DNA from: Escherichia coli | GTDB taxonomy: Bacteria; Pseudomonadota; Gammaproteobacteria; Enterobacterales; Enterobacteriaceae | Direction: 5' to 3' (one strand) | Assembly: GCF_050320075.1 (NCBI RefSeq) | Contig: NZ_CP190018.1 | DNA length: 64,000 nt | Shown: in pieces, positions 10,158 through 14,905 of the stretch | Position numbering within the stretch: position 1 is the stretch's first letter | How the letters are laid out: the number at the start of each line of letters is the position of its first letter | Notes under the pieces: model-generated | What the model saw: only the letters and a program-made list of their open reading frames with translations | Told to the model about the DNA's origin: nothing | Database searches by the model: none | Translations under genes and position numbers: made by a program

Positions 10158-11204
10158 TCAGAAGCGGCTATCTACCGCAGAGGCGAGTTTTTCGACCAGG
10201 CGTTCGGTATCTTCCCAGCCCAGACACGGGTCGGTAATCGATTGACCGTAAGTGAGCGGCTGACCGCCGACGATTTTTTGCGTTCCTTCGCGCAGGAAAC
10301 TTTCCGCCATAATTCCAGCAATCGCCGTAGAGCCATTGCGGATTTGCTGACAAATATCCTCACAAACTTCTAACTGGCGACGGTGCTGCTTCTGGCAGTT
10401 ACCGTGGCTGAAATCCACCACCAGATGTTCAGGTAAATCAAACTCGTGCAGCGTATCGCAGGCTGCGGCGATATCATCGGCATGATAATTCGGTTTTTTG
10501 CCGCCACGCATAATAATGTGGCCATACGGGTTGCCGCTGGTCTGATAGATGGTCATCTGACCGTTTTTGTCTGGCGAGAGGAACATATGGCTGGCGCGGG
10601 CTGCGCGGATAGCATCTACGGCAATCCGCGTGTTGCCATCGGTACCATTTTTAAAACCTACCGGACAGGAGAGTGCCGAAGCCATTTCACGGTGGATCTG
10701 ACTTTCGGTAGTACGTGCGCCAATCGCGCCCCAACTGATTAAATCAGCAATAAACTGACCGGTCACCATATCGAGGAACTCAGTCGCGGTAGGGACGCCC
10801 AGCTCATTTACCTGTAAAAGTAATTTGCGCGCCAGCTCCAGACCGTGATTTACCCGATAGCTGCCGTTTAAATCTGGATCGGAGATTAGCCCTTTCCAGC
10901 CGACAACAGTTCGTGGTTTTTCAAAATAGGTGCGCATTACGATTTCCAGCCGTGACTGGTACTGGTTGCGCAGCGACTGCAGACGGGTGGCGTACTCCAT
11001 TGCAGCGGTGAGATCGTGGATCGAGCAGGGGCCAATAATGACCAACAGTCGCTTATCTTCACCATTCAGTATTTTTTCAATTCTGCGGCGGGAGTCGGTG
11101 ACATGGGTGGCGACGCTAGGCGTTACGGGATACCGTAGCGCGAGTTCGGCGGGCGTTACCAGGCTCTCAATACGCGCAGTACGGAGTTCGTCAGTTCTGT
11201 TCAT
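10158..11204 (-). CDS. aroH: DAHP synthase, Trp-sensitive
   Basis: 348-aa ORF, class I DAHP synthase. Confidence 0.95.
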   Translation of the reverse strand: MNRTDELRTARIESLVTPAELALRYPVTPSVATHVTDSRRRIEKILNGEDKRLLVIIGPCSIHDLTAAMEYATRLQSLRNQYQSRLEIVMRTYFEKPRTVVGWKGLISDPDLNGSYRVNHGLELARKLLLQVNELGVPTATEFLDMVTGQFIADLISWGAIGARTTESQIHREMASALSCPVGFKNGTDGNTRIAVDAIRAARASHMFLSPDKNGQMTIYQTSGNPYGHIIMRGGKKPNYHADDIAAACDTLHEFDLPEHLVVDFSHGNCQKQHRRQLEVCEDICQQIRNGSTAIAGIMAESFLREGTQKIVGGQPLTYGQSITDPCLGWEDTERLVEKLASAVDSRF

Positions 11205-11349
11205 TACAAGTCTCAGAAATTTGTTGCTTCTACGGCAGGACTACCGGGAAGTGATGCGCATCACGATAAACCAATCGCAGCTGATTTCAAGTGCGAGGTG
11301 TGTCACACCTCGCCGGGTGGTTAGCATGATAACAAAAAAATAAGCTAAT

Positions 11350-11368
11350 GCACTAGTTCTCTAGTACA
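11350..11368 (-). promoter_or_regulatory. TrpR operator of the aroH promoter
   Basis: minus-strand GTACTAGAGAACTAGTGC palindrome (the aroH trp-operator sequence as I recall it), about 145 bp upstream of aroH ATG, overlapping the ppsR stop. Confidence 0.55.
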
Positions 11369-12194
11369 TTCGGCGGCTAAGGCCCATGATATCGAGGATC
11401 TTGGTGGCAATCTCTTCTACCGAATAATTGGTACTGTTAATCCACGGGATCTGATTTTTACGGTACAAGGCTTCTACTTCCGCGACTTCCATCCTGCACT
11501 GACGAAGCGAGGCATAGCGACTGTTCTCCCGACGTTCTTCGCGAATCGCCGCCAGACGTTCCGGGTCGATAGTCAGGCCGAACAATTTATGCTGAAGCGG
11601 TTTGAGCGACGCGGGTAGCACCAGATTATCCATGTCGTCGGCAATAAAGGGGTAGTTTGCCGCGCGGATACCAAATTGCATTGCCAGATACAGACTGGTG
11701 GGGGTTTTACCACAGCGAGAAACACCGAGCAGGATCACCTGAGCCTGATCCAGATTGCGCAACGAAATGCCGTCATCGTGGGCGAGGGTGTAATCAATCG
11801 CCGCAATGCGCGCATCATATTTATTGAGATTATTAGGGTTAAGGCCATGGGTACGATGAGCAATCGGCGTTGGATCCAGTTTCATCTCTTGTTGTAGCGG
11901 GGCAACCAGCGCCTGAACGATATCCTGGCAAAAGCCTTCACTTTGCAAGATGATGGCGCGAATCTCCGGCAACACGATGGAGTAGAAGACCAGCGGGCGC
12001 ACGCCTGTCTGGTGATAAATTGCGTCAATCTGATCCTTCACTGCCCGTGCACGGCTCTCATTTTCGACAAACGGCAGCGTAATGCTGCTGATAGTGACGG
12101 GAAATTGTGACATTACTGCGTGTCCTAATACCTCCGCAGTTATTGCCGTACCATCAGAAATATAAAAAACGTGGCGATCAACAGCATTATCCAT
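11361..12194 (-). CDS. ppsR: PEP synthase regulatory protein (bifunctional kinase/pyrophosphorylase)
   Basis: 277-aa ORF, divergent from ppsA. Confidence 0.9.
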
Positions 12195-12424
12195 TTTGTT
12201 CTTCCCGTGATGCAGACATAATTCTATGAAAGCATAAATTAAAAACGCACAGAAGCGTAGAACGTTATGTCTGGTTTATAAAATGAACCTTCAATTTTAT
12301 TTTTTATGAAAACAGCATTTCATTTTTACGGTTTCGTTTATACCGATGGTTTATGTGGAAATTGTCGAAGAGAGCAGATTTGCGCAACGCTGGGATCAGT
12401 CTTAAAAAGTAAAAAAATATATTT

Positions 12425-12440
12425 GCTTGAACGATTCACC
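12425..12440. promoter_or_regulatory. candidate Cra (FruR) site in ppsA promoter region
   Basis: GCTTGAACGATTCACC, imperfect TGAA...TTCA palindrome about 90 bp upstream of ppsA ATG; half-site spacing is off consensus. Confidence 0.3.
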
Positions 12441-12526
12441 GTTTTTTTCATCCGGTTAAATATGCAAAGATAAATGCGCAGAAATGTGTTTCTCAAACCG
12501 TTCATTTATCACAAAAGGATTGTTCG

Positions 12527-14905
12527 ATGTCCAACAATGGCTCGTCACCGCTGGTGCTTTGGTATAACCAACTCGGCATGAATGATGTAGACAGGGTTGG
12601 GGGCAAAAATGCCTCCCTGGGTGAAATGATTACTAACCTTTCCGGAATGGGTGTTTCCGTTCCGAATGGTTTCGCCACAACCGCCGACGCGTTTAACCAG
12701 TTTCTGGACCAAAGCGGCGTAAACCAGCGCATTTATGAACTGCTGGATAAAACGGATATTGACGATGTTACCCAGCTTGCGAAAGCGGGCGCGCAAATCC
12801 GCCAGTGGATTATCGACACTCCCTTCCAGCCTGAGCTGGAAAACGCCATCCGCGAAGCCTATGCACAGCTTTCCGCCGATGACGAAAACGCCTCGTTTGC
12901 GGTGCGTTCCTCCGCTACTGCAGAAGATATGCCGGACGCTTCTTTTGCCGGTCAGCAGGAAACTTTCCTCAACGTTCAGGGTTTTGACGCCGTTCTCGTG
13001 GCAGTGAAACATGTATTTGCTTCTCTGTTTAACGATCGCGCCATCTCTTATCGTGTGCACCAGGGTTACGATCACCGTGGCGTGGCGCTCTCCGCCGGTG
13101 TTCAGCGGATGGTGCGCTCCGACCTCGCATCTTCTGGCGTGATGTTCTCCATTGATACCGAATCCGGCTTTGACCAGGTGGTGTTTATCACTTCCGCATG
13201 GGGCCTTGGTGAAATGGTCGTGCAGGGTGCGGTTAACCCGGATGAGTTTTACGTGCACAAACCGACACTGGCGGCGAATCGCCCGGCTATCGTGCGCCGC
13301 ACCATGGGGTCGAAAAAAATCCGCATGGTCTACGCGCCGACCCAGGAGCACGGCAAGCAGGTTAAAATCGAAGACGTACCGCAGGAACAGCGTGACATCT
13401 TCTCGCTGACCAACGAAGAAGTGCAGGAACTGGCAAAACAGGCCGTACAAATTGAGAAACACTACGGTCGCCCAATGGATATTGAGTGGGCGAAAGATGG
13501 CCACACCGGCAAACTGTTCATTGTGCAGGCGCGCCCGGAAACCGTGCGCTCACGCGGTCAGGTCATGGAGCGTTATACGCTGCATTCACAGGGTAAGATT
13601 ATCGCCGAAGGCCGTGCTATCGGTCATCGCATCGGCGCGGGTCCGGTGAAAGTCATCCATGACATCAGCGAAATGAACCGCATCGAACCTGGCGACGTGC
13701 TGGTTACTGACATGACTGACCCGGACTGGGAACCGATCATGAAGAAGGCATCTGCCATCGTCACCAATCGTGGCGGTCGTACCTGTCACGCGGCGATCAT
13801 CGCTCGTGAACTCGGCATTCCGGCGGTAGTGGGCTGTGGTGATGCAACAGAACGGATGAAAGACGGTGAGAACGTCACTGTTTCTTGTGCCGAAGGTGAT
13901 ACCGGTTATGTCTATGCGGAGTTGCTGGAATTTAGCGTGAAAAGCTCCAGCGTAGAAACGATGCCTGATCTGCCGTTGAAGGTGATGATGAACGTCGGTA
14001 ACCCGGACCGTGCTTTCGACTTCGCCTGCCTGCCGAACGAAGGCGTGGGCCTTGCGCGTCTGGAATTTATCATCAACCGTATGATTGGCGTCCACCCACG
14101 CGCACTGCTTGAGTTTGACGATCAGGAACCGCAGTTGCAAAACGAAATCCGCGAGATGATGAAAGGTTTTGATTCTCCGCGTGAATTTTACGTTGGGCGT
14201 CTGACTGAAGGGATCGCGACGCTGGGTGCCGCGTTTTATCCGAAGCGCGTCATTGTCCGTCTCTCTGATTTTAAATCGAACGAATATGCCAACCTGGTCG
14301 GTGGTGAGCGTTACGAGCCAGATGAAGAGAACCCGATGCTCGGCTTCCGTGGCGCGGGCCGCTATGTTTCCGACAGCTTCCGCGACTGCTTTGCGCTGGA
14401 GTGTGAAGCAGTGAAACGTGTGCGCAGCGACATGGGACTGACCAACGTTGAGATCATGATCCCGTTCGTGCGTACCGTAGATCAGGCGAAAGCGGTGGTT
14501 GACGAATTGGCGCGTCAGGGGCTGAAACGTGGTGAGAACGGGCTGAAAATCATCATGATGTGTGAAATTCCGTCCAACGCCTTGCTGGCAGAGCAGTTCC
14601 TCGAATATTTCGACGGCTTCTCAATTGGCTCAAACGACATGACACAGCTGGCGCTCGGTCTGGACCGTGACTCCGGAGTGGTGTCTGAACTGTTCGATGA
14701 GCGCAACGATGCGGTGAAAGCACTGCTGTCGATGGCGATTCGTGCCGCGAAGAAACAGGGCAAATATGTCGGGATTTGCGGTCAGGGCCCGTCCGACCAC
14801 GAAGACTTTGCCGCATGGTTGATGGAAGAAGGGATCGATAGCCTGTCTCTGAACCCGGATACCGTGGTGCAAACCTGGTTAAGCCTGGCTGAACTGAAGA
14901 AATAA
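12527..14905 (+). CDS. ppsA: phosphoenolpyruvate synthase
   Basis: 792-aa ORF with PEP-utilising enzyme domains. Confidence 0.95.

Follow-up and report, generated by a model that had tools for sequence, protein, structure and literature searches.

The DNA between ppsR and aroH of Escherichia coli raises a question of shared bases. A palindrome lies exactly on the 3' end of ppsR, and we asked whether it is the TrpR operator of aroH, whether the aroH promoter is embedded in the upstream gene and where the arrangement came from. The locus was analyzed in the window, meaning the whole 64-kb stretch of E. coli DNA. A 1.7-kb stretch of it is 100% identical to sequenced E. coli and is found in 5423 of 5426 complete genomes. 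Gene names (selO, hemP, aroH, ppsR, ppsA) are those that RefSeq gives for an E. coli chromosome with 100% identity.

The aroH operator includes the stop codon of ppsR

The genes and the operator lie as follows.

11361 to 12194, minus strand: ppsR, PEP synthetase regulatory kinase/phosphorylase, protein end ...SRRMY (ORF list, RefSeq)
11361 to 11363, minus strand: ppsR stop codon TAG, in the left half-site (sequence)
10158 to 11204, minus strand: aroH, Trp-sensitive DAHP synthase (ORF list, RefSeq)
11350 to 11367, minus strand: TrpR operator of aroH, GTACTAGAGAACTAGTGC (sequence, K-12 identity, half-sites invariant in 77 sequences)
11367 to 11361, minus strand: left half-site GTACTAG (sequence)
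11356 to 11350, minus strand: right half-site CTAGTGC (sequence)

The minus strand from 11367 to 11350 reads GTACTAGAGAACTAGTGC, and the plus strand from 11350 to 11367 reads GCACTAGTTCTCTAGTAC. The last codons of ppsR are CGC CGA ATG (11369-67) TAC (11366-64) TAG (11363-61), after which the minus strand continues with AGAACTAGTGCATT. The left half-site is made up of the G of Met276, the full Tyr277 codon and the stop codon, so that ppsR contributes 7 bp to the 18-bp operator and TAG forms the last 3 nt of GTACTAG. The sequence-only reading had placed a TrpR operator palindrome on the 3' end of ppsR at 11340-11370. This was borne out, since the interval correctly encloses the operator and the TAG stop falls within the left half-site. 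The gap between ppsR and aroH measures 156 bp in the window, and ppsA starts at 12527 on the plus strand.

We scanned the window with the TrpR consensus GTACTAGTTAACTAGTAC. Allowing up to 3 mismatches, a single site was found, the aroH operator, whereas shuffles gave an expectation of 0.02 matches and any match at all in only 2 of 100 cases. The operator agrees with the consensus at 15 of 18 bases and has an intact CTAG core in both halves. Its 18 bp are the same in K-12 and in two more divergent E. coli strains; the variation among E. coli strains is found in the P1 spacer adjoining the operator. Compared with K-12, the window has the same locus with the 18-bp operator (100% identical), the P1 -10, P2 and the 156-bp spacer, and both start sites match the database values. 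The strain of the window differs from K-12 by one synonymous base in ppsR and two bases in the leader.

The aroH operator is described as covering the -35 region of its promoter. The classic studies of TrpR binding at this operator are reportedly those of Kumamoto 1987 and Klig 1988 (by title), and the operator and promoters are said to be treated in the primary papers Zurawski 1981, Grove & Gunsalus 1987 and Hudson 1991. A comparative-regulon paper states that aroH is repressed by TrpR; in full texts, neither the name of the operator nor its sequence gave a match. The assignment of the palindrome to TrpR and aroH held up on the identity with K-12, on the consensus match and on invariant half-sites around a free center across 77 species. 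The palindrome is the long-known aroH TrpR operator, and it is real, conserved and ordinary. The operator, TrpR and both aroH promoters are already known from textbooks or databases, and every annotated E. coli genome lets one see that the operator overlaps ppsR.

The operator covers the -35 region of promoter P1

11334 to 11326, minus strand: extended -10 of P1, composed of TG (11334-33), T and TATCAT (11331..11326) (sequence, conservation)
11355 to 11349, minus strand: -35 region of P1, with little likeness to TTGACA and located in the right operator arm (spacing and TSS)
11321 to 11318, minus strand: transcription starts of P1 (RegulonDB, Cappable-seq, guide-RNA offsets)

Start sites were collected from three published sources that are independent of one another. 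The distances from the aroH start codon to the transcription start are '117, 51' in RegulonDB v10.5 (K-12) and '114, 51' in a Cappable-seq study of O157:H7 EDL933, the meaning of these table columns being inferred from the methods text of that study. The 114-nt start of EDL933 corresponds to window position 11318. In a CRISPRa preprint the guides were placed at set distances from two promoters of a database, aroHp1 and aroHp2; counting back from these distances puts aroHp1 at about 11321/11322 and aroHp2 at about 11255/11256. With P1 starts at 11318-11321 the operator therefore extends from about -49 to -29 and covers the weak -35 region. TATCAT lies 7-8 nt upstream of the P1 5' triphosphate start mapped by Cappable-seq. 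The -35 region was positioned by a 17-18 bp spacing to the -10 and by the start sites. No recognizable -35 hexamer was found for P1, the best candidates AGTGCA and TAGTGC matching at 2 of 6 bases, and the consensus promoter scan did not call P1. The extended -10 may compensate for the poor -35.

According to the sequence-only reading, the aroH promoter is embedded in the end of ppsR and leaves a leader of about 100 nt or more. The leader length is right for P1, which starts 114-117 nt before the aroH ATG (RegulonDB, Cappable-seq). The embedding applies to the left operator arm and to the DNA upstream of -40, which lie in ppsR, but not to the promoter hexamers, which are intergenic. Mapping of the start site, proposed as a check, does place the P1 start just downstream of the operator; however, P1 is not the sole aroH promoter, as P2 is used too. 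The P1 start is not listed in the map of transcription starts of MG1655 in M9 glucose, where P2 alone appears for aroH, and therefore P1 may be weak or largely repressed in ordinary growth.

Taken as a whole, the best explanation is that the palindrome serves as operator for tryptophan-bound TrpR and lowers aroH transcription from P1 (probability about 0.92). As the operator lies over the P1 -35, bound repressor would exclude RNA polymerase by occupying this region, which is the action expected from its position and from established knowledge. The bases (AT)G-TAC-TAG would then serve Tyr277, the stop codon and the repressor contacts alike. P2, 63-66 bp downstream of P1, would be too far from the operator for occlusion and probably supplies a TrpR-independent basal expression, with a putative CRP site over its start.

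We compared this arrangement with known systems. The trpEDCBA and trpR operators of E. coli have the same repressor and the same CTAG-containing near-palindrome consensus as aroH, and all three operators overlap contact points of RNA polymerase. The trp operator covers the -10 region, the trpR operator the start site and the aroH operator the -35 region. Of the three, it is the operator of aroH that has bases in common with the coding sequence of an upstream gene and that is joined by a second, unoccluded promoter. Operators in the 3' end of an upstream gene are common in compact bacterial genomes, and the aroH operator resembles them in its shared coding bases and in selection on a synonymous site. 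In contrast to such operators, the aroH overlap is just 7 bp with the stop codon included, and the operator-free ancestral state is still visible in sister families.

The operator is conserved across Enterobacteriaceae

For comparison, one genome per species was used in which PpsR shared at least 90% identity, giving 80 loci, all from Enterobacteriaceae. In 76 of them the best TrpR-like site starts exactly 4 nt before the ppsR stop, with aroH 125-171 bp downstream. Klebsiella has the same arrangement, so that the operator on the stop codon is kept in 77 of 81 species of the family. These 77 canonical operators all agree at positions 1-6 and 12-15, and variation is free in the central 4 nt. The right arm CTAGT.C, which is non-coding DNA, is invariant as well. 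The P1 -10 is conserved as T-A-T-n-A-T among the 76 unique intergenic sequences.

The Tyr277 codon is TAC in all 77 sequences. Among the 41 ppsR codons with an invariant residue and C or T as third base, it is the sole fixed synonymous site. TAT was found at this codon in L033 and L036, two loci that have ceased to use the left arm. In L033 and L040, from Kosakonia-like genomes, DNA is inserted between ppsR and the aroH operator (L033:3334-3694; L040:3334-4944), with a duplicated TGTACTAA flanking the insertion at both ends. Despite the insertion the operator is still located 159 nt upstream of the aroH ATG. The element stays with aroH and is therefore, in function, a part of aroH.

A second promoter, P2, lies downstream of the operator

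11290 to 11263, minus strand: P2, with TTGAAA (11290..11285), a 16-nt spacer and TATCGT (11268..11263) (consensus scan, conservation)
11255, minus strand: transcription start of P2, 51-nt leader (TSS-seq, RegulonDB, EDL933, aroHp2 guides)
11250 to 11265, both strands: CRP-type palindrome AGTGATGCGCATCACG on the P2 -10 and start (ChIP-seq site list, conservation)
11313 to 11293, minus strand: hairpin GCGAGGTGT-GAC-ACACCTCGC, 9 bp, early in the P1 leader (sequence)

The TSS-seq supplement of Kim et al. 2012 lists an aroH start for MG1655 in M9 glucose at NC_000913.2 position 1786408 with 414 reads. This position equals 11255 of the window and gives a 5' UTR of 51 nt. Several other supplements with transcription starts had no aroH entry. 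An entry for aroH in a table of constitutive promoters was rejected, since it concerns the aroH-ydiE spacer and not the site between ppsR and aroH. In an ArgR ChIP-exo paper aroH is included only as a negative control.

Could aroH be driven effectively by P2 alone, with the operator a relic or accessory site and the ppsR overlap of little regulatory consequence? We consider this unlikely. It is in its favor that P2 is the sole aroH start listed for MG1655 in M9 glucose, that P2 and its leader are far more widely conserved than P1 and that CRISPRa activated neither aroH promoter. However, the starts at 114 nt (Cappable-seq) and 117 nt (RegulonDB) exist, and partial repression of P1 is expected in tryptophan-making cells, which can explain its absence from one dataset. 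Moreover, across about 77 species purifying selection clearly acts on the half-sites, on the synonymous site of Tyr277 and on the P1 -10. Such a level of selection is unexpected for a relic and therefore argues against one.

The CRP-type palindrome AGTGATGCGCATCACG is centered at about -2.5 relative to the P2 start, and for ETEC H10407 the same sequence is listed as the CRP site beneath the ChIP-seq peak found at aroH. The palindrome shows strong conservation and comes nearer to the consensus in Serratia, Yersinia, Erwinia and Pantoea (TGTGATCGCCATCACT), which suggests that the ancestral aroH promoter was repressed by cAMP-CRP. A second CRP site predicted by MEME, TGCGAGGTGTGTCACA (11292..11307), overlaps the hairpin at 11293..11313. 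This hairpin begins within the first nucleotides of the P1 transcript and lies shortly before the P2 -35. Its sequence is poorly conserved, but GC hairpins of different sequence occupy this position in other genera.

P2 and its 51-nt leader (11204-11291, minus strand) are 80-100% conserved across 76 intergenic sequences, more than the synonymous sites of ppsR. Within this stretch, CTTCCCGGTAGTCCTGCCGTAGAAG could form the pairings CTTC/GAAG and CGG/CCG. We searched 11100..11500 with Rfam covariance models and obtained no match at E <= 1, for which reason we rejected the idea of a riboswitch or other structured RNA leader. We likewise rejected a Trp-rich peptide encoded by the P1 leader, as judged from reading frames sought by eye and from a conservation that is promoter-like (P2) rather than coding-like. 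The frames seen by eye in the P1 leader were a GTG-initiated frame of 21 codons with one Trp and an ATG frame of 6 codons, with no others.

Unlikely readings: the palindrome as a terminator or as a by-product of coding

It is quite unlikely that the palindrome is mainly the hairpin of an intrinsic ppsR terminator, with the T-run at 11340..11334 as U-tract and the likeness to a TrpR site secondary. A terminator scan does flag AATGTACTAGAGAACTAGTGCATT and AGCTTATTTT, and the RNA fold has -17.4 kcal/mol (z = -2.66). A GC-rich terminator after ppsR is present in Serratia and Erwinia and absent in E. coli. However, the scan gave 1 terminator-like hit, fewer than the 2.0 expected from shuffles. Only 3 of 10 pairs in the stem are G-C pairs, and the T7 run, which starts 6 nt beyond the stem, is not conserved. 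In 62 of 77 species the innermost stem position has A opposite C, which do not pair; no compensating change is seen because the right-arm C is invariant. In L033 and L040, where the two genes are separated, the palindrome goes with aroH and not with ppsR. The analysis found no G+C-rich stem directly before a U-tract, as an intrinsic ppsR terminator would have, and no maintenance of stem pairing across species. A dual role as terminator in E. coli would be a minor one.

The chance that the palindrome is just a by-product of the conserved C-terminal codons of PpsR is practically nil: although the end RRM[YF]-stop is ancestral and ATGTACTAA alone provides 6 of the 7 half-site bases, the invariance of the non-coding right arm excludes an origin by chance, and taxa with the same PpsR C-terminus but without the right arm exist, besides the expectation of 0.02 matches in 64 kb.

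Stop codon type and operator symmetry

We compared the stop codon of ppsR with the right operator arm. When the stop is TAG, which makes the left arm perfect, the right arm is imperfect in 15 of 15 species. With a TAA stop the right arm is perfect in 53 of 62, these counts being species and not independent events. A perfect palindrome was found in none of the 77 species. This pattern of stop codon and arm suggests selection for an intermediate affinity. If so, ppsR may have been constrained by the operator since its origin, with TAC fixed for Tyr277 and the choice of stop codon tied to operator strength. For recoding of genomes some caution is advised, as a change of the ppsR stop from TAG to TAA would alter the aroH operator.

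The comparative results make a small teaching case in which regulatory DNA and a stop codon share bases, and in which selection can be measured both at a synonymous site and in the stop type. They also illustrate how, in a single bacterial family, an older promoter gained a repressor site. The small additions made here are the synonymous-site constraint, an apparent trade-off between stop codon and half-site, and an apparent family-level origin of the operator atop an older CRP-associated promoter. They have little weight for discovery, the system being already known.

Probable origin of the operator within Enterobacteriaceae

Serratia, Yersinia, Dickeya, Erwinia and Pantoea keep the order ppsA<-ppsR->aroH and the PpsR end RRM[YF]-stop. 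No operator-like site was found in these five genera, the best match reaching 9-10 of 18 bases. The P2 block and leader are nearly unchanged in Serratia, Yersinia, Erwinia and Pantoea, Dickeya being the exception. From this distribution, the aroH operator looks like an add-on of Enterobacteriaceae that was built on existing codons. A comparative-regulon paper limits TrpR control of aroH to few closely related Enterobacteriales, in agreement with an operator limited to one family.

The most economical reading would be that P2 is ancestral and that the operator and P1 were added in Enterobacteriaceae, with the terminal ppsR codons as one arm. P2 with its leader would be the ancestral aroH promoter of Enterobacterales. 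A right arm and a new -10 (P1) may then have evolved just downstream of the ppsR end, atop the older CRP-associated P2. We lean slightly toward the full scenario of exaptation in the ancestor of Enterobacteriaceae, in which the ppsR bases ATG-TAY-TAR were joined by a new right arm and P1, and the operator, selected for intermediate affinity, later came to constrain ppsR.

In Serratia and Erwinia a GC-rich hairpin followed by a T-run stands right after ppsR (L083:3323-3360; L086:3355-3385) and is likely the ppsR terminator. Such a GC-rich terminator is absent after ppsR in E. coli (window 11330-11360). Transcripts of ppsR in E. coli may therefore continue into aroH, unless bound TrpR or Rho halts them. 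Starts of ppsR itself were found in the TSS-seq of MG1655 30 and 25 nt upstream, with just 8 and 7 reads (window 12195-12526). RegulonDB has them at 106, 94 and 62 nt and Cappable-seq of EDL933 at 30 nt, so the sources disagree.

Some loci showed other arrangements at the ppsR end. In L070 (3300-3400) a complete operator, GAACTAGTAAGCTAGTAC, lies 20 nt past an intact ATGTACTAA end of ppsR. In L036 (3320-3360) ppsR has an extra Gln codon (ATG TAT CAA TAA), which leads to a degenerate left arm GTATCAA. The peptides encoded by the insertion in L040 are rich in glycine and about 100 aa long, have a leader of the double-glycine type (MKELTAHEMQYASGG...) and look like class II microcins.
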